DNA of 63,967 nt, filler included, from Collodictyon triciliatum (GCA_043381765.1; 10 parts of 10 records of this genome joined end to end with filler, not necessarily neighbours in it); one strand, 5' to 3'; shown: positions 7,121-62,844, counted from the whole stretch's first letter. Notes: generated by a model from the sequence alone, not told the origin. Numbers and translations are program-made.

Positions 7121-7220
7121 NNNNNNNNNNNNNNNNNNNNNNNNNNNNNNNNNNNNNNNNNNNNTTAATTAATTAANNNNNNNNNNNNNNNNNNNNNNNN
7201 NNNNNNNNNNNNNNNNNNNN
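7121..7220. other. Artificial contig spacer (N-run, TTAATTAATTAA, N-run; stops in all six frames). Also at 14339-14438, 24441-24540, 31658-31757, 38905-39004, 46113-46212, 53318-53417, 60595-60694, 62745-62844
   Basis: The same 100-nt pattern occurs nine times, mostly about 7.1-7.2 kb apart, between unrelated sequences. Confidence 0.97.
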
Positions 7221-13942: not shown

Positions 13943-15067
13943 GTAAGGCTGCTTTGCAACCCCACTTTTGCTTGCTTCTCGACCCTTTCTCTGCTGCTCT
14001 TGGCCTCGGCCTCTTTTAACCTTTTCTTTTCTTCTTTTTGACATGTTCTTTATTTTTGATATTTATTTCTGTTTATTAATGAGTCTTTTTCATCGCTGCT
14101 TTTTTATTCCCTCCTGCGTTATAAATATTTTTTTGGGTCGGATATAACACCGCCATAAAATGCTCTCGTGTTATCAACGCAGTGCGCATTTTGATGTAAT
14201 TCAGCATTTACAATGATAATGATAATAATGATAATAATAATAATAATAACTATAATAATAACTATAATAATAACTATAATAATAACTATAATAATAACTA
14301 TACACTTTGAATCGAATAAAGGAAAAAAAAACTATAATNNNNNNNNNNNNNNNNNNNNNNNNNNNNNNNNNNNNNNNNNNNNTTAATTAATTAANNNNNN
14401 NNNNNNNNNNNNNNNNNNNNNNNNNNNNNNNNNNNNNNCTTTGACTTCTCGCCACCAAAGACATACTCGTATGTGATGATTGGGTACTATGTGAGCATCA
14501 CGCTGTGCAACATCATGATGGAGGCCGGGGTCTTTTCATTCCCAAGCCTCAAGTTCAGCACATAGTTATGGAAGGGAGCATCGTGGAGAATAGTGGATGG
14601 GTGATGAGGACTGCATCAAATGATTGGTGGCGCCCGTCACTTCCCGTGAAAAAAAAGAAAAAGAAAAAGAAAAAAAATACAAGAACCAACCAAGATAGAA
14701 AGCAAAAGAACTCGCTTCATCCACAGCTTCGAAACAATAAACAAACAAACAAACAAACAAACAAACAAACAAAAAAAAACGATGAAGATAACGAATAAAT
14801 ATCCAAACAATTCATTAAATAAATGGAGCGAAAAGTCATACAATCCAAATCATACATGAAACGCGCTTCACAAATCATCCATAAGGAAAACAATCGCAAA
14901 AAAAATAAAATAAAATCAAAAAAGCAGTAAAATAATAAAATAAAAGCATGATTGAATGAAAAACAGAAAGAGAAAAAAAAACTCTGATTCTCTACAAGCA
15001 ACCTCCAAACAACGACAGAGTACTCCTTCTTACACACTCTTTTCTTTTACCTGTTTCGCCTTGCAAG

Positions 15068-24383: not shown

Positions 24384-24557
24384 CATTATCATTATCATTA
24401 TCATTATCATTATCATTATCATTATCATTATCATTATCATNNNNNNNNNNNNNNNNNNNNNNNNNNNNNNNNNNNNNNNNNNNNTTAATTAATTAANNNN
24501 NNNNNNNNNNNNNNNNNNNNNNNNNNNNNNNNNNNNNNNNAATTTATTTTTTTCAAT

Positions 24558-27038
24558 TTATTTTAAAAGAAAGGATGGTTTGTTTTCAGATTTAAGCGGC
24601 TCGGTTCCTATTTCATTAATCATTTCCACTTCGGCACTGTCGTTATCCTCTTTTTCCTGTGAACTCAATTTTTGGTGTCCAATTATTGCAGGCTTTTTCA
24701 ATTTTTCTTTTTTATACATCGCATCTCTTTGTTTGACGTACTTGCTGAGCATAGGACACACTGTCATTTTTTCGTAAAATGTCCCAATTTTCATTTCAAA
24801 CTTATATTCTGATTGTTTTTTAAACTCAATGTAGTCTTTGCGTATATCAGCCAAATAAACAATTTCTTCATTGGCTGAATCAACTTTTTTATAGTTTGTG
24901 TAAAACCAACTTGTAAAATCATCGGACTCCTGAAAATAAGTTTCTGTAATTAAATGCGACCGACTGCCTTCTTGTAAAAGAAATGATGAATTTTTTATGT
25001 AATCCTGAAATGAGTCAGCCAAAATGTGAAAATACGCAATTTTATATGATTTTAAAAAATCAAAGTCCTTGTATTTAAGATTCACGATACCATACCCTTC
25101 TTTTTCCTCCATCGCATCATACACTTCTTTTTCGATAAACTTGATAGGAAAATGTATCACAAATAGTCTCTGTGTGATTGCCTGCTCGACTACATCAAGT
25201 TTTGGTTTGCTGTTGCACTCTAGTATATAAGTTCCGCAATTTAGGGTGTCTGTTTTTTTTGAGTAAATACCTCTAGCGTTGATGACCGAGCACCCTGTGA
25301 GTAGCTTGAGGGTACTAGTGGCAATCTTTTCGTCTTGGTCTGGTTCTGATGTTGTTATGAGTCGCTTGCCCTCGATATTTGCCAAAGCTTGATTTGTTCC
25401 TTCTTTCAGCTTGGACTGAATACTACTTGGTGACAGCGCATAAAAATAGTTTCCCAGTGCATATTTGTTGAATTCCTGGAAAAGTCCTTTTCCGTTTCGT
25501 CCACTGCCGTGTGCCAGACAGATTTTCTCGACTAGTGTCCCAGTTAGCCCAGTCGAGCAATATTTTAAAAAAAGGTTCAAGTCATAATCCAATGGCAGAA
25601 TTGTTTTAAATATTTCCATTAACTTTATTTTTTTGGCATCTAATTCTGAGTAATCTTCGTAGTTGTATCCACAGGTCTCTGAGATATATTGTTCTGGCTC
25701 AGGTTCAATAAATTTGTTTTTTTCTAAATCAAATATTTTGTTGTTGAAGGCAAATAAATGCGGTTTCTCGTTAAATTTCAGTGTCGAGTTTTCAAGTCTC
25801 TGAAGAACTAGTGTCACAAGAGCCCTGAAATTAAACACACGAGACTTGATTAGTTCCTTCTCCCACGCCTTTTGGTGAACCAAAATCGATTTTGAGTTTT
25901 CGAGGTCTGCTTCTTCGGGCTCGGGTTTGCCTCTTTTTCTTTTGTTTGATTTTTTAGTTGGTTGTTCATTTTGACCAAATGCTTGTTTCATCAAGTCGTA
26001 AATGACATAATAATAATTGTCACTCCAATATTTTGCGAATTGGTAATAGTTTTTTTCAGGTGTGTCAGCCTCCCAATAAACACCATTGTAAACATACAAG
26101 ACTCCGTTACAAGCAGCAAACTCTTTCTTTTTCGCAATCTCAGAGGCAATATTGTACAAATCAAACGGGTCCCAGAAATTAATGTTTACTTTATCTGCTG
26201 TCGTGAGGTCTATTATCTCGGTCATTTCTTTGTGAATAAAACTTATACCCGGTTCATCCACATATTCATTTATCATTTTTATGAATTTTTCGAGACCCAT
26301 AGCTTTGAATCGTTCTTTATGTAAATAAAAACCATCGTGAGCTGGTATATACATGTTTGAATTTTTAACAAATTCCAGGGCTTTGACGAGATAAACAGAC
26401 TCGTAGTGTTGCATTATCAATGCCATTCCCGTATTGATTATTTCATAAGGATTTTCATTTTCTTGTTTGGCCACTTTAAAGAAGCGTTCAAAGTCTGGGA
26501 TACATACAAATTGTTCCTTGAGTCTCTTGGCTTCTTCATAGTATGTTTTTACAAATTCAGAGGCGGTTTCTTCTATAATTTTTTTGTCTTCGGCCCAGGT
26601 AGTGAATCCTCCGCCAAAATTCATAATGTTGAATAGGTCTTTGGCATCTGGTTTTGAGCACTTGTATTTATCCATTATTTCAGACAGACACAAATCTCGA
26701 TTTTCGCAGTAATGCGTCAGTGCTTCACATCTTATGTTATGTTTGTTACACAACTTTAAAAGAATGCTGGGATGGCAATTCGATATATCCACGTCTACAT
26801 AATTTTGATGTAACAGTGTCTGCTTAATCCATCTTGGTAGCGCATTGATATCTGGCTTGCCCCAAAATCGTCCTTCGTTTTTTTGAGTGTACTCGACTTT
26901 TACCACACCATCCGCAACTGACTTTTTTAAAAAAATCAAAGCATTCTTTACACTTGTTTGCTGACTAATAAATCGTTCTGTTTTGCAGAGCTCGGTTATA
27001 TCGTCTTTGCAAATCTGAATTTCAACTTTTAATGACAT
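24558..27038 (-). CDS. TVpol (PolA-like primase-polymerase) fused to D5-like superfamily-3 helicase
   Basis: N-terminal GRFWG..YVDVDISNCHPSIL (motif A), KDLFNIMNFGG (motif B), QHYE, PAHDGFYL (motif C). D5_N-like LYVYNGVYW and FAFNNKIFDL. SF3 Walker A GSGRNGKG, Walker B LITTSEP, motif C ILECN. Confidence 0.85.
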   Translation of the reverse strand: MSLKVEIQICKDDITELCKTERFISQQTSVKNALIFLKKSVADGVVKVEYTQKNEGRFWGKPDINALPRWIKQTLLHQNYVDVDISNCHPSILLKLCNKHNIRCEALTHYCENRDLCLSEIMDKYKCSKPDAKDLFNIMNFGGGFTTWAEDKKIIEETASEFVKTYYEEAKRLKEQFVCIPDFERFFKVAKQENENPYEIINTGMALIMQHYESVYLVKALEFVKNSNMYIPAHDGFYLHKERFKAMGLEKFIKMINEYVDEPGISFIHKEMTEIIDLTTADKVNINFWDPFDLYNIASEIAKKKEFAACNGVLYVYNGVYWEADTPEKNYYQFAKYWSDNYYYVIYDLMKQAFGQNEQPTKKSNKRKRGKPEPEEADLENSKSILVHQKAWEKELIKSRVFNFRALVTLVLQRLENSTLKFNEKPHLFAFNNKIFDLEKNKFIEPEPEQYISETCGYNYEDYSELDAKKIKLMEIFKTILPLDYDLNLFLKYCSTGLTGTLVEKICLAHGSGRNGKGLFQEFNKYALGNYFYALSPSSIQSKLKEGTNQALANIEGKRLITTSEPDQDEKIATSTLKLLTGCSVINARGIYSKKTDTLNCGTYILECNSKPKLDVVEQAITQRLFVIHFPIKFIEKEVYDAMEEKEGYGIVNLKYKDFDFLKSYKIAYFHILADSFQDYIKNSSFLLQEGSRSHLITETYFQESDDFTSWFYTNYKKVDSANEEIVYLADIRKDYIEFKKQSEYKFEMKIGTFYEKMTVCPMLSKYVKQRDAMYKKEKLKKPAIIGHQKLSSQEKEDNDSAEVEMINEIGTEPLKSENKPSFLLK

Positions 27039-27125
27039 CTTCTTACAATCCCTTACAAAAATGTTTTTAAGCCCTTGTTTTGTTGCGTTTCAATTGATAA
27101 AAAACAATGGGGGAGGGGGGAGGCT

Positions 27126-27281
27126 GGCCCATTTTTATAATTTTTAGCCCATAAATCCCAAAAAAAATGGGTAAATCATAAACTCCGCGTAGGCGTTTTT
27201 TTTACATCGTGTAAAAATTCAACATAAGCAAATAAACATTTTCCCCCAATTTTTTTGGGATTTTTGGGCCAAAAATGGGCC
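27126..27281. repeat. Nested imperfect inverted repeat upstream of the primase-helicase (candidate origin or hairpin)
   Basis: GGCCCATTTTT (~27126) pairs with AAAAATGGGCC (27271-27281). GCCCATAAATCCCAAAAAAAATGGG (~27147-27171) pairs with CCCAATTTTTTTGGGATTTTTGGGC (27245-27269) with about 2 mismatches. Confidence 0.7.
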
Positions 27282-27294
27282 AAAAAATGGGAGG

Positions 27295-27477
27295 CTAATC
27301 AAATGAAATTAAAATTTTTTCGTTAAGCAACCTTGATTTAATTTTATATATCCTATTATTCTTTTCTTTTCTATGAAACTTTTCAAGATAGTGTATGTAG
27401 TTTTGTAAATCGTCTAAATCGTCATATATGCCCTGATGGGTCAAAATGTCGTTTATGTATATTAGAAGCTCGTACAT
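27295..27477 (-). CDS. Small viral hypothetical protein (60 aa)
   Basis: ORF fills the space beside the ATPase and has the element's TCTA-N9-ATG upstream motif. Confidence 0.55.
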   Translation of the reverse strand: MYELLIYINDILTHQGIYDDLDDLQNYIHYLEKFHRKEKNNRIYKIKSRLLNEKILISFD

Positions 27478-27498
27478 ACTTTTTTATAGATAATTATA
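27478..27498. promoter_or_regulatory. Candidate bidirectional promoter between the 60-aa ORF and the ATPase (overlapping TATA on +, TCTA on -)
   Basis: TATA 27485-27488 lies 10 nt before ATG 27499; TAGA 27487-27490 (TCTA on minus) lies 9 nt before ATG 27477. Confidence 0.55.
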
Positions 27499-28221
27499 AT
27501 GAATACAAAACGCGTTTCAAACATCAAAATAGCGCCACTGACAAAACCGACGAAAACTCGTGATTTTGGAATTCCGTTTCCGCTGCCGGATATCTCTATC
27601 AGAAATTTTATAATGGGGGTGCTTGGACCGACTGGCTCATCAAAAACAACGTTATACGCAAATTTAATTCGAAAGCACTATTTTGAGATTTTCAACAAAA
27701 TTTATTTCTGCTCACCCAATGTGACGGACGAAGGGAAGGTCTACGACAAGTCCCTGGACTCGATTGATTTTTCAGAGGAGCGTGTTTTTCAAACAGTAAA
27801 CAACGAAGTAGCAGATTATATAAAAGAGGATATAGAGGGTGACGAGGATTTCGAGAAGGAGGATTTCAGAGCGCTCTTGATAATCGATGACTTGGCCAAT
27901 GAGCTGAAAAGCATTCGGCATACCCAGCTGACTAAATTAATTTTAAAGTCGCGGCACTTGCATCTCAGCATAATTATGATTTCGCACAAGTTTACATATT
28001 TCCAGAGAATCCACCGGACAAATTTCACGCATTTTATAATGTACAGAAGCAAATCAAAAAACGAGGTAAAATCCATTTATGAGGACATTATAGATTTGCC
28101 CGAGGAAAAGTTCCAGCAGTTCTATGAATACGCAACAGCGGAAAAATACAATTTTCTTTATGTTGTTTGCAATTCCAACCCGCAACTTTATTTTAAAAAT
28201 TTTGAGGAGGAGTTAACCTAG
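27499..28221 (+). CDS. A32/FtsK-HerA-type genome packaging ATPase
   Basis: Walker A GPTGSSKTT, Walker B LLIIDDL, and the arginine motif KSRHLHLSIIMISHKF..RIHRTN typical of Polinton/virophage/NCLDV packaging ATPases. Confidence 0.9.
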   Translation: MNTKRVSNIKIAPLTKPTKTRDFGIPFPLPDISIRNFIMGVLGPTGSSKTTLYANLIRKHYFEIFNKIYFCSPNVTDEGKVYDKSLDSIDFSEERVFQTVNNEVADYIKEDIEGDEDFEKEDFRALLIIDDLANELKSIRHTQLTKLILKSRHLHLSIIMISHKFTYFQRIHRTNFTHFIMYRSKSKNEVKSIYEDIIDLPEEKFQQFYEYATAEKYNFLYVVCNSNPQLYFKNFEEELT

Positions 28222-28241
28222 ATTTTTTTATAAGTAATGAT

Positions 28242-28652
28242 ATGGTATTCACACGGAGAAGCTTAAGAGGATTCACAAAAGGTCTGGTTAAAGTTGTAAG
28301 GAAGGGAATGAATGTCGGAGAAAAAGTAGTCAACGCAGTAGACAAAGCGACGGGAGGCGGACTCAGGGACCTGGCTCGTACTGCGACGGGTGGATTGTCA
28401 GAACAGGCTCTAAAAGTCTATAATGCTAACAAAGGGTACGTGAAAAAAGGCTTGGATTTGGCAGAAGGCAAACAGGGTGCAACCGTGGCAAAGCTTGTCG
28501 AGGGTAGCAAATACGAGGGACAGTTTAAAAAAGGTGTTGACCAAGTCAATAAATACGCGCCTGTAATTCGCGGAGCTGCACAACGAAACGAATCCCTGGG
28601 AAAAGTCATGAAGTCGTACGACGACAATATCCGAAATAAAATAGGTTATTAA
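28242..28652 (+). CDS. Basic Gly/Ala/Lys-rich viral protein (candidate virion core or membrane-active protein)
   Basis: 136 aa between ATPase and MCP; amphipathic-looking N-terminus RSLRGFTKGLVKVVRKGMNVGEKVV; TATA-N9-ATG upstream. Confidence 0.65.
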   Translation: MVFTRRSLRGFTKGLVKVVRKGMNVGEKVVNAVDKATGGGLRDLARTATGGLSEQALKVYNANKGYVKKGLDLAEGKQGATVAKLVEGSKYEGQFKKGVDQVNKYAPVIRGAAQRNESLGKVMKSYDDNIRNKIGY

Positions 28653-28674
28653 AAATTATTTTCTTTTTTAGAAT

Positions 28675-30447
28675 ATGGATTCACTACCCGAGGAGCTACA
28701 ATTTAGAAATGTATCGTCAAAAAAGAAAACTATTTTGGAAAAACAACAAAGACAAGTTTTGCCCTCAAACGGCACAAATCAGACTGCGAATTTTAGTAGT
28801 GGTCCGCAAATAGTATTTCGAGTTCCCATTGACAATGAATGGAGCATTCAAATGGACAGTGCTCATATTTTATCTGATCTTCAAGTATCTGGAATTCCAG
28901 CTGCTTTTACTGGCGCAACTGGGCAGGCTGGTTTAAAACAAACACAATTAGCTGGTGCTACTGGTGCAATTATTCCCATTTTGGCACCTTGCGAAAGTTA
29001 TGAATCATTTATTTATAGAATTGCCGTTTACTTAAATGGCAGTGAATTGGAGAGAATCGACAACTATTCATATTTGGAAAGTTTTAAACATACGTGGTGC
29101 AATAACCAAAATTGGGTAAACTTGATGAGTGGAAGTATGGGATTAGGACAATCTATATTAGATAAATCCAAACTATTTTTGGTTGGTGCGGAAGGAACCA
29201 GTAGTAACACTGTGCAAATCGGGTTTCCGTTACGATACTTAGGGTTAAACAATATAAAGACGCTATTACCCGCTTATCTACTAGGGCCAAATTCACTGGA
29301 GATTCGTATTTGGATGTCGCCTGCATCTGAATGTTTTACATGTGGTACGTTAGCTGCAGGAGCAACTGCAGCAGGAAGTAGATTAAATTTTACTAATTGG
29401 TCAGGTACCACAGGAAATAATTTAAGTTACACATTAAGTAATATTAGAATGAATATAAACTATATTCAAACGGAGCCATCTTATAACAACGCACTGTCTC
29501 AGTATTTAATAAACAATAATCTACAAATACCTATAGAAACTTATTTCATGACTCAATTTCCTATACCAAAGAATTCTAGTGGGTGGATAACTCAGAATAT
29601 TTCAGTTCAGTACTCAAATATAAATGCTGTGTATCTTATATTTACTCGTAATATCGAACAAGGTGTTTTATCATATTTGGGCACTGATAGACTTCATGCA
29701 ATCGAAGGAATAGCTCAGGCAAGACTTACAGTGAATGGTAAAGTGATGCCATCCGTTCCTATTTTGCTTCAAAACCCAGGATATGTAACTTATCCAGGAA
29801 CTGCTGCCGGTTCACCTGTATCACCAGGTGTAAATATTGGAACTGCTAGCGACCTATTGGCAAGTGGAATTCATGGTCAGGCGTGTTGCCAGCAACCAGA
29901 AGCTCTGAATTATCTAATGAAAGCGCTCGGATACAACACCTCAGCGGAAATGCTTGGTCAGGTGAATTTCCCGGTGGTTGATTCCACCCCTCATAGTTTT
30001 AATGGAAACTATACACTTCAAAAATCAGGAGCAGGTGCATTTTATGCCAGCAACAAAGCCGTTTATAACAATATGTTTCCAGATGCTGGCCAAACTGGCG
30101 GTGTTGTTGGTTTGGCTAATAATAATAACAATCCATTAAATTGTGAAGAGATCTTTTGGAAAACACCAACTCATTTCGCACTTGGGTGGTCAATGACGCG
30201 CTCGGACTACAGTGATGAATTTGAATTGTCTGGTTACAATGCATCTTCAAATTCTGGAATTGTACAGGTGGGTCTACAATTTGCAGGTTCTTGTAAATCT
30301 GGTGTGGCAATTTCAACTGCTGCCGTAAGCCATGATAAAGGAGCAATTTCTCAATTAACCCCACTTACCGATTACACCTGCTGGGTCATCATCGAGCACA
30401 CACGTATTCTTGACGTTGGCAAGGACAATGCCCAAGTTCTTTATTAA
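28675..30447 (+). CDS. Probable major capsid protein (double jelly-roll, PLV-type)
   Basis: 590 aa, beta-rich. SLPEELQF..VLPSNG..QIVFRVP..D and SFIYRIAVYLNGSELERIDNYSYL match the pattern I recall for PLV MCP N-termini. Lies between the packaging ATPase and the penton-like gene. Confidence 0.8.
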   Translation: MDSLPEELQFRNVSSKKKTILEKQQRQVLPSNGTNQTANFSSGPQIVFRVPIDNEWSIQMDSAHILSDLQVSGIPAAFTGATGQAGLKQTQLAGATGAIIPILAPCESYESFIYRIAVYLNGSELERIDNYSYLESFKHTWCNNQNWVNLMSGSMGLGQSILDKSKLFLVGAEGTSSNTVQIGFPLRYLGLNNIKTLLPAYLLGPNSLEIRIWMSPASECFTCGTLAAGATAAGSRLNFTNWSGTTGNNLSYTLSNIRMNINYIQTEPSYNNALSQYLINNNLQIPIETYFMTQFPIPKNSSGWITQNISVQYSNINAVYLIFTRNIEQGVLSYLGTDRLHAIEGIAQARLTVNGKVMPSVPILLQNPGYVTYPGTAAGSPVSPGVNIGTASDLLASGIHGQACCQQPEALNYLMKALGYNTSAEMLGQVNFPVVDSTPHSFNGNYTLQKSGAGAFYASNKAVYNNMFPDAGQTGGVVGLANNNNNPLNCEEIFWKTPTHFALGWSMTRSDYSDEFELSGYNASSNSGIVQVGLQFAGSCKSGVAISTAAVSHDKGAISQLTPLTDYTCWVIIEHTRILDVGKDNAQVLY

Positions 30448-30476
30448 ATAATTGTTTTATAAAAATAATTATTTAA
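30444..30476. terminator. AT-rich palindromic hairpin between convergent MCP and ORF136 stops
   Basis: TTAAATAATTGTTTT-ATA-AAAATAATTATTTAA: 15-bp stem (14 Watson-Crick, 1 G:U on the + transcript), 3-nt loop, overlapping both stop codons. Confidence 0.7.
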
Positions 30477-30879
30477 ATCTTACTAGTTGATTCAAGTATG
30501 GATTGGCAGCGACCCTGTCGCTGGACGACAAAGTCATCCGTGTTGATTGTCTGTAACTTGTTCCAAGTTCTGGTTCATCCGATTCTGATTCTGATTCCGC
30601 TTTTTTTCGTTTCTTCGGAATTTCCCGGGGGTTGGATTTCTTTTTTAGTTGCTCTTTTATCTCAGAGAGTTCACTTTTTAAATTAGAGAATTCATCAGTC
30701 TCTGCGTCTCTCGCCGAATTTCTAACAGATTCCTCGATCATTTGCGATGCTTTTTTCTTGGCCATCTTTTTCTGCCGCATAAGTTCGAGGTTTTTGAGCT
30801 GTTTGGGGGTCAGTGTTCTTTTCTTTTTTTCGGGCACGGCAACAGGAAGTTCAACATCTTCTTCATATTCTTGCTCCAT
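30469..30879 (-). CDS. Charged viral hypothetical protein (136 aa)
   Basis: Acidic N-terminus, KKKRTLTPKQLKNLELMRQKK basic helix, coiled-coil middle; TCTA-N9-ATG upstream. Confidence 0.7.
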   Translation of the reverse strand: MEQEYEEDVELPVAVPEKKKRTLTPKQLKNLELMRQKKMAKKKASQMIEESVRNSARDAETDEFSNLKSELSEIKEQLKKKSNPREIPKKRKKAESESESDEPELGTSYRQSTRMTLSSSDRVAANPYLNQLVRFK

Positions 30880-30912
30880 AATTTGATATAGAAAAAAATT
30901 CTATGGTAATTT
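30880..30912. promoter_or_regulatory. Candidate bidirectional promoter TAGA-AAAAAAT-TCTA between ORF136 (-) and penton (+)
   Basis: TAGA 30889-30892 is 9 nt from ATG 30879 on minus; TCTA 30900-30903 is 9 nt from ATG 30913 on plus. Confidence 0.65.
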
Positions 30913-31657
30913 ATGCAACGCCGACTGCTTAACGAGAGAAATACAAATGAGGCCAACTATCTTTTTATTAATTCGGAATCGAAACGAGTGAGTGGGTCAA
31001 ACAACAATTTCACCTTTGATTTATCAGATTTCCCAGTTATCAAAAACAAGGCATATAATCTATATATTAAAAGTGTATACTACCCCACGACTATACACCA
31101 GATAACAGAGTTGTATCAATACAATCAATTGCGAATTCGAGTATTGAATACAAACACAACTATAAGTACTTTTACAACAATAACAATCAATGAAGGTACA
31201 TATAACACTAGCCAATATGCCCAAGCGGTTGCCCTAGCACTAAATACTTTATTAGCAAGCAATGGACAAGACCAGTATGATATGGGATATGACGATATTC
31301 GCAATCGGTTTTATTTTGAAAGAAAAACAGTTGCGACACCGGCAATAAGAGTTTATATAACATCTAATGATTCATTTAGTCAGTACCAGGGTGAATTTGG
31401 TTTCGGTGGGTCTTATGTAATTGGATGCAATTACAACACAGAATTTGAATTACCTCTGCAAACAATTCCTAAAAAATATCTGCCGAATCCTGGAATTTTA
31501 CAGCCCTACAGTTATTTTTTTATGACTATCCAGGGAATCACAAATTTGAATTTCAACACAGATGTCCCTGAGCGTTTTGATATTGCTTATCGGTGTCCAT
31601 TGAATCTAAGTAATAGTAAATACCAGTATACATTTATTGAAGAAAGCCAAGAAGAAT
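30913..31657 (+). CDS. Probable minor capsid protein (penton, single jelly-roll), 3'-truncated by contig end
   Basis: YLFINSESKRVSGSNNNFTFDL..LYIKSVYYPTTIHQI..NQL..TITINEGTYNTSQYAQAVALALN follows the pattern (INS..R..G...F, xxP.s.y.I, i.i..G.Y...l...l..aln) I recall for PLV/virophage pentons. Confidence 0.75.
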
Positions 31658-32486
31658 NNNNNNNNNNNNNNNNNNNNNNNNNNNNNNNNNNNNNNNNNNN
31701 NTTAATTAATTAANNNNNNNNNNNNNNNNNNNNNNNNNNNNNNNNNNNNNNNNNNNNTTCCCTTTCTCTTCTTTCTCTTCTTTCTCTTCTTTCTCTTCTT
31801 TCTCTTCTTTCTCTTCTTTCTCTTCTTTCTCTTCTTTCTCTTCTTTCTCTTCTTTCTCTTTCTCTTCTTTCTCTTCTTTCTCTTCTTTCTCTTTCTCTTC
31901 TTTCTCTTCTTTCTCTCCTTTCTCTTCTTTCTCTTCTTTCTCTTCTTTCTCTTCTTTCTCTTTCTCTTCTTTCTCTTCTTTCTCTTCTTTCTCTTCTCCT
32001 TCACACAGCACACAACATCTCGCCAGCTTCGGCTTCAAAATTTTTAAGAACACCAACGAGATGCACAGATTAAAAAAAAAATCCCAAGAAAAAAATGAAT
32101 CGTATTAAAAAAAAGAGCGACAGAAGCCCAATCAGCGTAGTGATGCTATATCAGGTATGATTTTTCTTTAATGGGTTCTTTTGATTTTGGCCAGCGGGGT
32201 GGAACGACGCGACCGAAGGGAATAAGACACAGGATTCCGCCTCAACGAAGAAAGAAAGGAAGAAAGAATGGAATGAATGAAGAAGAAGAGGAAATAATCA
32301 GGCTGTAATCCGCCCCATTTCGATTGCACCACTCTGGAAAAATCAACAAGGACGAAAAGATACTTGATGAGAAATCCATGCAATGATTTGTCCGGTCAAC
32401 GATATAATACATATCGATAATCATGTTCTTACCCCCATGCTTGAGCTCAACCGAGAGTGTATCATTTGTCTGTATCAGAGAATATG

Positions 32487-38904: not shown

Positions 38905-39389
38905 NNNNNNNNNNNNNNNNNNNNNNNNNNNNNNNNNNNNNNNNNNNNTTAATTAATTAANNNNNNNNNNNNNNNNNNNNNNNNNNNNNNNNNNNNNNNN
39001 NNNNTTTTTTTTACTTCATTACAACTCTATAGAACCTTCTACGAAGCGGGCAAGAGGTCTGTGTCGGTTTAATTGTCATACAATAGTGATATAAAAGTTG
39101 ATGTAGCTCATTATTTCGACTAAAATATCAATAACATGCACCCAAAATAGGTCTAAATTCAAATTCAAGCCTCCGTTGGAAAAAATTGAGAGATATAATC
39201 GTGGGGAAAAAGAAAATCAAATCTTTATCAACATCAGATCATTCCTTGTTTGTCTAATATATTAACCCATATTCCGATTTAATTTTATTATTTTGCTCTA
39301 TAGCCATTAATCCTGTCATAGCCTCCCTGGATAAAAGGTGTTCTTTTTCTTTCTTTCTAGTTGTTTGTCTAATTTCTGAAATGTTACAG

Positions 39390-46112: not shown

Positions 46113-47145
46113 NNNNNNNNNNNNNNNNNNNNNNNNNNNNNNNNNNNNNNNNNNNNTTAATTAATTAANNNNNNNNNNNNNNNNNNNNNNNNNNNNNNNN
46201 NNNNNNNNNNNNAAAAAAAAAAAAAACAACAAAAACAAAAAAAAACAAAACAAAAAAACAAAAAAACAAAAAAACAAAAAAACAAAAAAACAAAAAAAAA
46301 ACGAAAACTAAAAGCTAAAAGCTAAAAATGAAATAATTAATGAACCAGGTCAGACAAGTTGGAGTAGATATTAAATAGAGCAACAGGGATAAGTCTTTGG
46401 AAGCTCATAGGTCTGTGGTGATGGAGTGCGGCAGGAGGAGCTGTGCGGTTTATTTCTGCCTTTTGGCAAACTCTTTTGCCATACTCTTGATCACCCTCTT
46501 TCGTTCCATTCAAAATAGCAAATCCAAAAGGGATTAACGTCACTATATATTTCTGGAATTTATAATAACTGTCTTTCATAAACCTATTACCCAGCCACCA
46601 CCGATTAATGACCAAAGGATCAAAACGCAATCACTAGCACCTACTACGAAAGTGGGAATGAGGCAGAAGAGGAACACATCCTGCCGTTTGCATGACTCAG
46701 TTGCGCTAGAAGAAAATAAACATAAGCGGGGGATTGCAAAAACACGAAAAGAGGCCGGATTTTCTATATGCGGAATGTATATATAAACGTTATTTATATT
46801 GATAATATGAATATGGTGCACTACAAGAGCGGAAAATACTATATTTAATACAAATGAAACAATAAAATAAATAATTTTTATCTGGAATATATCCAGGTAC
46901 CGATTTGTGCATTTGAATGAGAAAATCAGAAGGCTTGTTGTATAGAGCATTGGGAGGGATGATGGCCGTTCAGCCTCCGCGCATCGCCCAGACGCTTCTT
47001 TTCCATCCAGCGGTAAAGCCGTGTGGCAACATGCAATAAGAGCAAAGTAAAAGGCCAGAGCCTCCTTAGGGTTTGCTTCGGTATATTTTTTTTTTTCACA
47101 TTTTAAAACAGCACTACATTTCTACCTTCGAGCGAGTTGCGAGAG

Positions 47146-53317: not shown

Positions 53318-53417
53318 NNNNNNNNNNNNNNNNNNNNNNNNNNNNNNNNNNNNNNNNNNNNTTAATTAATTAANNNNNNNNNNNNNNNNNNNNNNNNNNN
53401 NNNNNNNNNNNNNNNNN

Positions 53418-60411: not shown

Positions 60412-60740
60412 CTATTAGAGGTCAAAATAAAGAATGTTACCATTCATATACTGTGCATCTAATACGAATGGTTCATGGCAATCGCAATATATGTAACTCA
60501 CCTAAATAACACATGTCCTATTGATGTAAGATTTTGAATATAGGATTAATATTTTGAAGAAAATAGACTTATTAACGATGTATAATCATGGAAANNNNNN
60601 NNNNNNNNNNNNNNNNNNNNNNNNNNNNNNNNNNNNNNTTAATTAATTAANNNNNNNNNNNNNNNNNNNNNNNNNNNNNNNNNNNNNNNNNNNNAAAACT
60701 ATCCAAAAAATTCAAATAAAAACCCCTTCCCAACCCAAAA

Positions 60741-62643: not shown

Positions 62644-62844
62644 TGTGTAAAAATTGCAAATGTGTACAGTTTGTTTCATTTCAGTTTAAGAATAGAGGAA
62701 AAGGAAAAAAAAAAAAAGAAGAATGAAATAAGATGTAAGAAGACNNNNNNNNNNNNNNNNNNNNNNNNNNNNNNNNNNNNNNNNNNNNTTAATTAATTAA
62801 NNNNNNNNNNNNNNNNNNNNNNNNNNNNNNNNNNNNNNNNNNNN

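Follow-up and report, generated by a model that had tools for sequence, protein, structure and literature searches.

A promoter-like signal ahead of the genes of a freshwater polinton-like virus fragment resembles the upstream signal of giant-virus capsid genes

Introduction

Which transcription apparatus reads the genes of a small virus whose sequenced fragment encodes none? The question arises at a locus in the window, a stretch of 63,967 nucleotides that joins records of the Collodictyon triciliatum assembly (GCA_043381765.1). The original prediction placed a TCTA-like motif at a fixed distance before six of seven viral genes, likened it to the late promoter of the giant virus CroV, and suggested a virophage-like element that is activated upon giant-virus infection. 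The background of this proposal holds: an AT-flanked TCTA is described as the CroV late promoter and is common to the virophage mavirus (PMC8547959, PMC5294985). Polinton-like viruses are mostly known as sequences only, and for few of them is it clear whether a giant virus is needed; a signal of this kind gives a testable pairing.

The contig and its genes

The viral genes lie on an assembly contig of 7117 bp (24541..31657), which stands alone between artificial linkers of the form N44-TTAATTAATTAA-N44 (24441-24540 and 31658-31757); the same linker occurs at eight further positions of the window. With an artificial linker on either side, the viral piece does not show host integration. Neither a junction between viral and host DNA at these ends nor terminal repeats were found. 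The idea of an integrated element awaiting activation thus finds nothing in this free-standing piece, and the record gives no grounds for claims of an endogenous inducible defence element. Contigs from freshwater metagenomes hold pieces of the viral stretch with 0 differences, and among the sequencing runs listed as containing it, none is recorded as RNA. Elsewhere in the window, outside the contig, there were no further protein matches to small viruses or giant viruses.

The contig is a fragment of a polinton-like virus, with a D5 primase-helicase and the morphogenetic set of a double-jelly-roll major capsid protein (MCP), a single-jelly-roll penton and an A32/FtsK-type packaging ATPase. The D5-like primase-helicase (24558..27038, minus strand, 826 aa) matches Pfam D5_N (1.2e-9) and DUF5906 (3.5e-7) and the PHROG DNA primase (7.6e-33). 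The A32-type packaging ATPase (27499..28221, plus strand, 240 aa; Pfam Pox_A32, 2.1e-14) is divergent from orf60 (27295..27477, minus strand), a small conserved gene with homologues at the same position in the relatives L005 (41% identity, 2e-13) and L013 (33%, 2.8e-4). The non-coding 256 nt from the orf60 stop to the primase-helicase start hold a 32-nt inverted repeat (27140..27276; 91% complementary, 73-nt loop). Between the ATPase and capsid genes lies orf136a (28242..28652, plus strand), encoding a basic conserved protein of unknown function for which an Atlas search gave no informative match; homologues are present in the loci of 13 relatives and absent from L002, L003 and L006 only.

The MCP (28675..30447, plus strand, 590 aa) was assigned to the double-jelly-roll fold by a structure model (pLDDT 73, pTM 0.78) and Foldseek, which returned capsid proteins of giant viruses, virophages (mavirus 6g45, Sputnik 3j26), adintoviruses and PBCV-1 at 1e-18 to 1e-10. 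Its likeness to the mavirus and Sputnik proteins is at the fold level only (8-11% identity), and giant-virus capsid proteins are resembled equally well or better. Metagenomic homologues of the MCP number 26. The convergent gene orf136b (30469..30879, minus strand) encodes a lysine/glutamate-rich protein with homologues in L001-L004, L006, L007 and L009. The penton gene (30913..31657, plus strand), cut by the contig end after 248 codons, was modelled via its full-length L003 orthologue (88% identical; pLDDT 63.5), and the model matches the fold of the mavirus minor capsid protein (4.2e-11), the Tetraselmis viridis virus S1 protein (6.6e-11), adomavirus LO5 and the adenovirus penton. No protease or integrase match was found in the contig or in 10 more proteins from relatives, all contigs being incomplete, and no polymerase B was seen in the element or its relatives, which are partial genomes. 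Transcription machinery genes are absent from the fragment itself; as the contig is incomplete, such a gene could sit elsewhere in the small-virus genome.

Sites upstream of the viral genes

All of the predicted sites are located as claimed: TCTA-N9-ATG precedes orf60, orf136b and the penton gene, TATA-N9-ATG precedes the start at 28242, TATA-N10-ATG that at 27499 and TCTT-N9-ATG that at 28675. A 14-nt matrix from which the window sequences were left out gave strong scores at two of the seven genes, those for the capsid protein and orf136b, and marked four more as weaker variants. The best site is that of the MCP, AAAATTATTTTCTT-N9-ATG (28652..28665, plus strand), with 17.5 bits. The orf136b site, AGAATTTTTTTCTA-N9-ATG (30889..30902, minus strand, TAGA at 30889-30892), scores 13.8 bits, and ATTTTTTTCT(A/T) is conserved there in L001, L002, L003 and L006.

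Among the variants, the orf60 site ATTATAATTATCTA-N9-ATG (27487..27500, minus strand, TAGA at 27487-27490) scores 3.0 bits, and its TCTA-N9 is also found in L005. The reverse complement of this site is overlapped by the weak T-run/TATA site of the ATPase gene, CATACTTTTTTATA-N10-ATG (27475..27488, plus strand, 1.9 bits). The orf136a site, TAGATTTTTTTATA-N9-ATG (28219..28232, plus strand, 2.4 bits), keeps the run of seven T and the spacing, with A in the window and G in L005 at the position of the C. The TCTA-N9-ATG of the penton gene (30890..30903, plus strand, TCTA at 30900-30903, 1.1 bits) is specific to the window; it is missing in 3/3 aligned relatives, which have AAATATTGG or AAATATTTA instead. 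As predicted, the primase-helicase lacks the motif: no TTTCTW was found upstream of its start (27038, minus strand), where the best matrix score is -7.6 bits.

Controls and conservation

The TCTA-like motif before the genes of the element is real. TCTA-N9-ATG occurs at 3/7 gene starts compared with 0/204 other ATGs of the contig, and 8/2028 ATGs of the other contigs in the window, the AT-rich ones among the latter giving 0/364. Under a relaxed rule (TCTA, TATA or TCTT at N9-10) the figures are 6/7 starts, 9/204 other ATGs of the contig and 59/2028 elsewhere. When the proximal 25 nt were shuffled, 0/20000 shuffles reached three strict or six relaxed sites. Looser criteria are reached more often: a C/G-containing 4-mer, free in identity and in its common offset, reaches 3/7 in 171/20000 shuffles, and a 4-mer of any composition at one shared offset does so in 4684/20000; therefore, the window alone is only moderately convincing.

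The relatives decide the matter. An unguided motif search by EM gave likelihoods above those of all 20 shuffles in both of two sets. In 26 unique upstreams from the window and close relatives it returned AaAtTaTTTTcT with an LLR of 59.1 (20 shuffles: mean 33.3, maximum 41.9), and in 32 upstreams of relatives with a 33-38% identical capsid protein it returned caAATTAtTTTC with an LLR of 65.6 (shuffles: mean 33.6, maximum 38.2). The block AAAATTATTTTCT at the MCP site is invariant in seven sequences that are about 70% identical; these 13 nt are unchanged while neighbouring spacer bases vary. The MCP-site signal is also found upstream of the capsid gene in the relatives with 33-38% identical capsid proteins. 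In the relative L009, WTTTCTW stands 7-10 nt ahead of the ATG in 5/7 called genes, which are mutually non-homologous. Across nine small-virus loci, TTTCTW ends 6-11 nt ahead of the ATG in 17/39 called genes and occurs 0 or 1 times in each other 6-nt bin out to 53 nt. For comparison, WTTTCTW at N7-10 was found in 16/2409 called genes of 227 motif-selected IMG/VR loci, mostly phage-like.

A longer signal, AAAATT(A/T)TTTTCT(T/A), has TCTA as its tail and is located 9-10 nt ahead of the ATG. The motif is not the CroV TCTA as such, contrary to the earlier proposal, since the conserved core is TTTTCT(T/A) within AAAATTWTTTTCTW and its last place is T more often than A, the family consensus ending in TCTT oftener than in TCTA. 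The sites are promoter-like, being conserved, at a fixed short distance to the ATG and ahead of non-homologous genes.

Match to giant-virus capsid-gene upstreams

A similar signal was met in a giant-virus locus, L021, which was obtained by an exact-motif scan whose match stood before a non-capsid gene. Among the genes of L021 are those for a giant-virus major capsid protein (Capsid_N, 1.7e-55) and VLTF3 (3.7e-44), and the sequence upstream of its capsid gene is ATTTTTTTTCTTTAG. With this capsid protein as query, 80 loci with 81-100% identity were fetched, which contain 57 unique capsid-gene upstreams. This clade has the signal AA(A/T)TTTTTTTCTTTAG 15-18 nt ahead of the major-capsid gene: TTTCTW is present in 50/57 upstreams, 47 of the 50 at 15-18 nt from the ATG. 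A 14-nt matrix built from small-virus sites only reaches at least 12 bits on 34/57 of these upstreams compared with 0.3% of 365 other family representatives in the same giant-virus loci (1/365) and 0.8% of 1295 AT-rich control genes, a link that was reached through a motif-selected locus and concerns a T-rich signal of low complexity. A 14-mer identical to AAAATTATTTTCTT precedes 2/57 capsid genes. In addition, a giant-virus bin with a 55% identical capsid protein has AAATTTTTTTTCTT 18 nt ahead of its main capsid gene. The two groups differ in spacing to the ATG, which is 9-10 nt in the small virus and 15-18 nt in the giant-virus capsid genes. The most conserved block before the latter also includes TTTAGCAATATTATAA, which most small viruses do not have.

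In the giant-virus loci as a whole (999 unique upstreams), TTTCTW peaks 12-19 nt before the ATG, with 116 occurrences in two 4-nt bins over a background of about 1-12 per bin elsewhere. The families that carry it are the capsid protein, two small ORF families and a weakly A32-like family. A separate AAATTGA peak, 28-50 nt upstream, marks among others the deoxynucleoside kinase family (16/20 members), and the clade also uses the Mimiviridae early motif AAAATTGA. The loose word TTTCTW was found at 13/366 family representatives, whereas a control offset gave 3 and the reversed word 7. Since the strict motif is nearly confined to capsid genes and the loose word reaches 13/366, a general late promoter in these giant viruses is not shown. 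Genome-wide pattern counts in a 683-kb giant-virus bin gave no excess over control (94 vs 83; 92 vs 100; 143 vs 163; 144 vs 157), in counts that take any ATG and are thus of low power. More than 8000 capsid proteins of this giant-virus group scored in a search. The signal is a candidate capsid-gene promoter for these viruses, and would tie one polinton-like lineage to a specific group of lake giant viruses, uncultured and very abundant.

Proposed transcription by a giant virus

Based on these comparisons, we propose that the sites serve as core promoters of the polinton-like virus, one for each gene or divergent gene pair. Each would consist of a run of A, a run of T and a core CT(T/A); the consensus ends 9-10 nt ahead of the ATG, which would leave the mRNA with a leader of just a few bases. 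A similar signal stands ahead of the MCP gene and a few seemingly morphogenetic genes in a large uncultured clade of freshwater giant viruses, which combine the Mimiviridae early motif with a late transcription factor of their own, VLTF3. The small virus, lacking its own transcription machinery at least in this fragment, would have its genes read in the factory of the giant virus by the late apparatus of the latter, as though they were capsid genes, which would be a virophage-like way of life. We infer that the giant-virus polymerase reads the motif and that the clade with matching capsid upstreams is the partner, and we regard transcription of the small virus by this late apparatus through capsid-gene-like promoters as somewhat the more probable course. 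The small virus probably relies on an uncultured lake giant virus to switch its genes on. The earlier idea of giant-virus transcription is thus plausible: the likeness to a giant-virus signal is supported by the matrix matches (34/57 compared with below 1% of controls), whereas identity with the CroV TCTA is not.

The main competing explanation is that the element is an autonomous polinton-like virus whose own compact promoter is read by host RNA polymerase II in the nucleus, the giant-virus likeness being AT-rich coincidence or convergence in the same host. Independent replication, with no giant virus, is reported for at least one polinton-like virus (PMC10945749, PMC11502894). The low complexity of the signal, the unlike spacing (9-10 nt compared with 15-18 nt), the downstream block TTTAGCAAT..TATAA that is mostly missing in small viruses, and a window without giant-virus genes also favour this explanation. 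However, where the core ends 9-10 nt from the ATG, a TATA box about 30 nt ahead of the start site of a transcript with a normal leader would not fit, and the small-virus matrix singles out the capsid genes of giant viruses far above controls. Giant-virus capsid genes rely for their transcription on the viral apparatus rather than on that of the host, and VLTF3 is present in L021. We therefore consider host transcription unlikely, though a real contender.

Much less probable is that the block is no promoter at all and acts at the RNA level or on the upstream gene (termination or 3'-processing in the style of the poxvirus TTTTTNT) or as an element of the translation leader. Tandem gene pairs do carry the block in 20-nt spacers right after the upstream stop codon, T5-N-T is contained in ATTTTTTTCT, and a hairpin arm of the relatives (AAATTATTTTT) resembles the motif. 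Nevertheless, the block also stands ahead of the first genes of divergent pairs (orf136b, orf60), which have no same-strand gene upstream, its commonest form ATTATTTTCTT lacks T5-N-T, and its distance is fixed to the downstream ATG rather than to the upstream stop. Chance recurrence of functionless A/T-rich words before ATGs in AT-rich spacers is hardly credible: although the permissive 4-mer count in the window alone is easily reached by shuffles and three of the six sites (TATA, TATA, TCTT) enter by the relaxed rule, neither observed count was reached in 20000 shuffles, TCTA at N9 is missing from the other 204 ATGs, the two independent EM sets exceed all shuffles, and the 13-nt block is invariant at about 70% genome identity while the adjoining spacer varies.

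Returning to transcription by the giant virus, a further step may be suggested tentatively, at slightly less than an even chance: a widespread freshwater polinton-like lineage may have copied the capsid promoter of its partner onto its own morphogenetic genes, as a virophage-like parasite of an abundant uncultured clade of the Mimiviridae type, while its sister lineages L007 and L008 would have switched to a different, TATATA-type signal. If so, promoter words could serve to assign uncultured small viruses to giant-virus partners, and would suggest that the CroV TCTA is a local variant of an older capsid-gene promoter of the T-run-CT(T/A) type.

Comparison with known systems

Sharing of a giant-virus late promoter is an established principle for CroV with mavirus and EMALE04 (PMC8547959, PMC10945749). 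Similar to mavirus and the type-4 endogenous mavirus-like elements, the present element has a short C-containing core in an A/T-rich setting a short way ahead of almost all its genes, with a similar signal ahead of late genes of a Mimiviridae-kind giant virus (here the capsid gene) and the literal TCTA at three window sites. Unlike in mavirus and CroV, the conserved core is AAAATTWTTTTCT(T/A) with T commoner than A at the last position, and TCTA is unconserved, that of the penton site occurring in the window only. In addition, the element belongs to the polinton-like viruses and encodes a D5 primase-helicase, with no protease, integrase or polymerase B seen in it or its relatives, and its putative partner is uncultured and known here from sequence.

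Gezel-14T (PgVV-14T) is also a polinton-like virus, described as having a virophage lifestyle on Phaeocystis globosa virus and thought to depend on this mesomimivirus for transcription through a shared promoter motif (10.1101/2022.07.28.501842). In PgVV, the early motif AAAATTGA is reported before five genes, and for the related mesomimiviruses the authors report that no late motif was found (10.1101/2022.07.28.501842). By contrast, the present signal is that of giant-virus capsid genes and stands ahead of morphogenetic genes, the replication gene having none. The poxvirus and ASFV late promoters, with a T-rich core, a spacer and a start-codon initiator, likewise have the core near the ATG and very short leaders (PMC5294985), whereas in the small virus the ATG is not overlapped by a conserved TAAAT or TATATA initiator; the likeness is one of architecture, not of sequence.

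Sputnik, with hairpin-dependent 3' ends, also uses late signals of its giant virus, mimivirus, and AT-rich palindromes after genes are described for Mimiviridae (PMC4402537) as they are predicted here. The mimivirus late motif is described as a degenerate bipartite A/T-rich signal (PMC5294985), unlike the present motif. An AT-rich palindrome with a 15-bp stem (30444..30476; -8.8 kcal/mol, z = -4.3 vs shuffles) lies between the convergent capsid and orf136b genes, and a stem of 10-15 bp is predicted between the same genes in 7/8 loci. Mimiviridae transcripts are reported to terminate at such palindromes (PMC4402537), and this one is a candidate site for 3'-end formation.

The predicted hairpins fit the proposed transcription by a giant virus, as does the binning of L008/L017 and L078, relatives or look-alikes, with giant-virus MAGs according to their record names.

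Organization of the viral contig

The contigs chained in the window, most of about 7.1 kb each, are joined by artificial spacers consisting of 44 N, TTAATTAATTAA and 44 N. Such spacers were counted at ten places, among them 7121-7220, 14339-14438, 24441-24540, 31658-31757, 38905-39004, 46113-46212, 53318-53417, 60595-60694 and 62745-62844, and the adjacency of genes on either side of a spacer implies no genomic linkage. GC content ranges from 0.26 to 0.61 in 1-kb windows. Only the contig at 24541-31657 (7117 bp) carries viral genes, and the rest of the window encodes no relative of any collected small-virus or giant-virus protein. Because artificial spacers bound this contig on both sides, the flanking sequence is no guide to the virus or to integration.

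The left end of the contig lies 17 bp beyond the end of a D5-type primase-helicase gene (24558-27038, minus strand; Pfam D5_N 1.2e-9 and DUF5906 3.5e-7, PHROG primase 7.6e-33), next to which is a 256-nt non-coding stretch (27039-27294) with a G-rich run and a 32-nt inverted repeat (27140-27171 and 27245-27276). Further along are orf60 (27295-27477, minus), an A32 packaging ATPase (27499-28221, plus; Pox_A32 2.1e-14), orf136a (28242-28652, plus), a double-jelly-roll capsid protein of 590 residues (28675-30447, plus), orf136b (30469-30879, minus) and a penton gene (from 30913, plus), which is truncated by the right contig end. Searches of Pfam, PHROG and PDB sequences yielded no matches for the capsid protein, the penton, orf60, orf136a or orf136b, and orf136a had weak Atlas matches only. 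In Foldseek, the AlphaFold model of the capsid protein (pLDDT 73) matched capsid proteins with a double jelly roll from giant viruses, virophages and adintoviruses, with E-values from 1e-18 to 1e-10. The penton was modelled via its full-length orthologue from the related metagenome locus L003 (88% identical, pLDDT 63.5), and this model matches the mavirus minor capsid protein (4.2e-11) and the pentons of adomaviruses and adenoviruses. No protease, integrase or polymerase B was seen in the contig or in ten further proteins of relatives. The gene set is that of a polinton-like virus, with the genomes being incomplete.

Motif sites upstream of the viral genes

The original prediction described a TCTA-like motif at fixed spacing before six of the seven viral genes. 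All six sites lie exactly where it placed them, and the observation is confirmed and extended here. TCTA lies 9 nt ahead of the ATG at 3/7 gene starts, versus 0/204 other ATGs of the contig and 8/2028 ATGs in the other contigs; a relaxed rule gave 6/7, 9/204 and 59/2028, respectively. Neither the strict nor the relaxed count was reached in any of 20000 shuffles. In look-elsewhere controls, 3/7 was reached by 171/20000 shuffles for any C/G-containing 4-mer at any shared offset, and by 4684/20000 for any 4-mer. The motif evidence from the window taken alone is suggestive but not decisive.

Scoring with a matrix derived from relatives, the window left out, revealed that the sites are of unequal strength: 17.5 bits for the capsid gene, 13.8 for orf136b, 3.0 for orf60, 2.4 for orf136a, 1.9 for the ATPase and 1.1 for the penton. 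The primase-helicase scored -7.6 bits. The orf136b block ATTTTTTTCT(A/T) is conserved in relatives, and the TCTA of orf60 is also kept in the relative L005. Upstream of orf136a the T7 run and the spacing are kept, with the C position being A in the window and G in L005. The TCTA of the penton gene is missing in 3/3 aligned relatives.

Conservation of the motif in related small viruses

Homologues of the capsid protein (n = 26, 32-74% identity) were found in metagenomes only, and a profile scan for capsid relatives gave 16 metagenome loci. Against IMG/VR, a single-protein scan with the capsid gene had no match, and the capsid profile scan returned only L017, the same contig as L008. In 14/16 relative loci the capsid gene is preceded by ATTATTTTCT(T/A), then 9-10 nt, then ATG, and these include loci with a capsid protein merely 33-38% identical; the corresponding upstream of the relative L013 reads ATTATTTTGT. 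The motif is missing before the capsid gene in the relatives L007 and L008. The block AAAATTATTTTCT does not vary among seven sequences of about 70% DNA identity, in contrast to the spacer 3' of it.

ORFs were called from the first ATG with at least 50 codons, overlapping ORFs were removed, and the 40-nt upstreams were submitted to unguided EM. The window and its close relatives (26 unique upstreams) yielded AaAtTaTTTTcT with an LLR of 59.1, where 20 shuffles averaged 33.3 and peaked at 41.9, and the distant relatives (32 upstreams) yielded caAATTAtTTTC with an LLR of 65.6, versus 33.6 and 38.2, so that the motif search in related copies exceeded all shuffles in both sets. The EM motif ends 10-12 nt upstream of ATG. 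In nine small-virus loci, TTTCTW (W, A or T) ends 6-11 nt before ATG in 17/39 genes and is nearly absent at other distances; in the relative L009 it is found at 5/7 called genes, which are mutually unrelated. Therefore, conservation and EM in the relatives indicate that the fixed-spacing signal of the original prediction holds, but that its TCTA or TCTT is only the 3' tail of a signal of 12-14 nt.

L007 and L008 have no TTTCTW and carry TATATA-type words near ATG instead, such as AATAATATATAA followed by about 10 nt and ATG in L008. The akin words TTATAT, TATATA and TAATAT are the most enriched hexamers 6-22 nt before ATG in the giant-virus loci, and L008 is binned with a giant-virus MAG according to its record name. 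A further small element, L078, is a 6.9-kb contig from a giant-virus MAG bin and encodes a DUF5906 primase-helicase, a DNA methylase and a GIY-YIG nuclease; AAAAATTATTTTCTT lies upstream of two of its genes and close variants upstream of two others.

The signal in giant viruses

Two exact-motif scans of IMG/VR returned at least 120 and at least 119 stretches, which are no measure of the prevalence of the motif among giant viruses. The matches listed are mostly single ones in phage-like contigs and probably arose by chance. Among the 227 loci listed, 212 had no match at a gene start, 14 had one and one had two; as an AT-rich control, WTTTCTW at 7-10 nt from ATG occurred in 16/2409 called genes of these loci. 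The sole two-gene-start locus among the matches listed, L170, lies within a giant-virus bin of 683 kb. Pattern counts over the whole bin gave no excess, with every ATG of a 22%-GC genome counted and a few dozen true sites thus undetectable.

One of the few listed loci labelled as a giant-virus bin, L021, has genes for a capsid protein of giant-virus type and for VLTF3. Its capsid gene is preceded by ATTTTTTTTCTTTAG, and the locus had been brought in by a different gene. With this capsid protein as query, 80 loci (L246-L325; 81-100% identical, 1.05 Mb) were obtained, of which 61 matched from residue 1 and gave 57 unique capsid-gene upstreams. TTTCTW is present in 50/57, and in 47 of the 50 it lies 15-18 nt before ATG. 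The small-virus matrix scored at least 12 bits in 34/57 and at least 15 bits in 19/57, compared with at least 12 bits in 0.3% of 365 other gene-family representatives in the giant-virus loci and 0.8% of 1295 genes in AT-rich control loci. The identical AAAATTATTTTCTT precedes two of the 57 capsid genes. A giant-virus bin with a 55%-identical capsid protein has AAATTTTTTTTCTT 18 nt before the main capsid gene and TTTAATTTCTA 13 nt before the ATG of a paralogue.

Across 999 unique giant-virus upstreams, TTTCTW peaks sharply at 12-19 nt before ATG and AAATTGA at 28-50 nt. By family, TTTCTW was found at 34/64 called capsid-gene starts, at 30/64 and 40/47 starts of two small ORF families, and at 13/36 of a weakly A32-like family (Pfam 7.7e-4, below the cut-off). 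AAATTGA marks 7/48 families, including deoxynucleoside kinase (16/20). A loose form of the capsid-gene word, with one representative per family, matched 13/366; a control offset gave 3 matches and the reversed word gave 7. From this distribution, the T-run-CTT block is a predicted signal of the capsid gene and of a small number of others in these loci. The early motif AAAATTGA is described as conserved in mimivirus relatives in passages of PMC5294985 and PMC13196603; therefore, the giant viruses of the 80 loci are of the Mimiviridae kind.

In the same loci, the stretch immediately preceding the capsid-gene ATG, a block TTTAGCAAT(A/G)(T/A)TATAA, surpasses even the T-run in conservation. The more distant L312 and L314-L316 have an A-run in place of the T-run and retain this block.

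Transcription of the small virus

As the conserved core ends 9-10 nt before ATG, the mRNAs of the small virus would have very short leaders, with no space for the usual nuclear arrangement of a TATA box and a leader. An identical core lies before the capsid gene of viruses with their own late transcription factor, which suggests that the late machinery of a giant virus reads the small-virus genes. We consider this reading somewhat more likely than not. The main rival, that the virus is autonomous, that host polymerase II reads its genes and that the likeness to giant viruses is coincidental, draws on the low complexity of the signal, on a spacing unlike that of giant viruses and on the missing downstream giant-virus block in the small viruses; we regard it as rather unlikely. 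Reading by giant-virus transcription machinery, as originally predicted, is partly supported, by a score of at least 12 bits in most giant-virus capsid-gene upstreams against less than 1% of controls. As a general late promoter of the giant viruses, the block would be no more than a candidate.

The sections of PMC5636890, PMC8547959 and PMC11502894 that treat this subject present promoter matching of virophages and polinton-like viruses to giant viruses as an established approach. The same mechanism as that favoured here, reading by the late machinery, is accepted for mavirus with CroV, where the relevant passages of PMC8547959 and PMC10945749 report a response to infection only in elements with the CroV late motif. 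For the polinton-like virophage PgVV, the text of 10.1101/2022.07.28.501842, as far as it covers promoters, gives use of an early motif and no late motif found in its partner. Unlike PgVV, the small virus shares the capsid-gene signal. Literature searches turned up no account in print of a TTTTCT(T/A) motif before capsid genes, and supplementary motif lists (PMC11502894 data 3 and the EMALE figure of PMC8547959) may already contain the TTTTCT type.

The non-coding stretch 27039-27294 is a possible origin or early control region. It contains the palindrome TCAATTGA at 27090-27097, which lies some 52 nt upstream of the primase-helicase start and partially resembles the early motif; this palindrome was considered as an early promoter and rejected, being not conserved in relatives. 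Three copies of (A)AAATTGA on the minus strand (24553-24559, 24665-24672 and 24698-24705) cluster within the final 170 nt of the primase-helicase gene and point off the left contig end, with one further copy in the entire contig. They could be candidate early-type promoters of a gene beyond that end.

Palindromes between convergent genes

An AT-rich palindrome with a stem of 10-15 bp sits where the capsid and orf136b genes converge in 7/8 loci, at 30444-30476 in the window and at the equivalent place in the relatives L001, L002, L003, L006, L007 and L009. By analogy, these palindromes would fit hairpin-dependent 3' ends of the Mimiviridae style, as outlined for that family in part of PMC4402537. 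The palindrome arm AAATTATTTTT in L002, L003 and L006 resembles the promoter motif.

Natural occurrence

No run recorded as RNA contains the viral stretch, and no sequencing run contains half of its words. Parts of it are covered by contigs from four freshwater metagenome runs, in some with 0 differences over 308 and 316 nt. Therefore, this virus itself or a closely similar strain circulates in lakes, an occurrence that fits equally a free virus, an assembly contaminant and an endogenous copy. An in-frame strain length variant is seen inside orf136b, where 36 nt (30505-30540) are absent from the contigs of three freshwater runs. A metagenome contig of run X1 leaves the window sequence at about 27285 and enters a stretch with two AAAATTGA copies, which suggests strain differences in the non-coding region.
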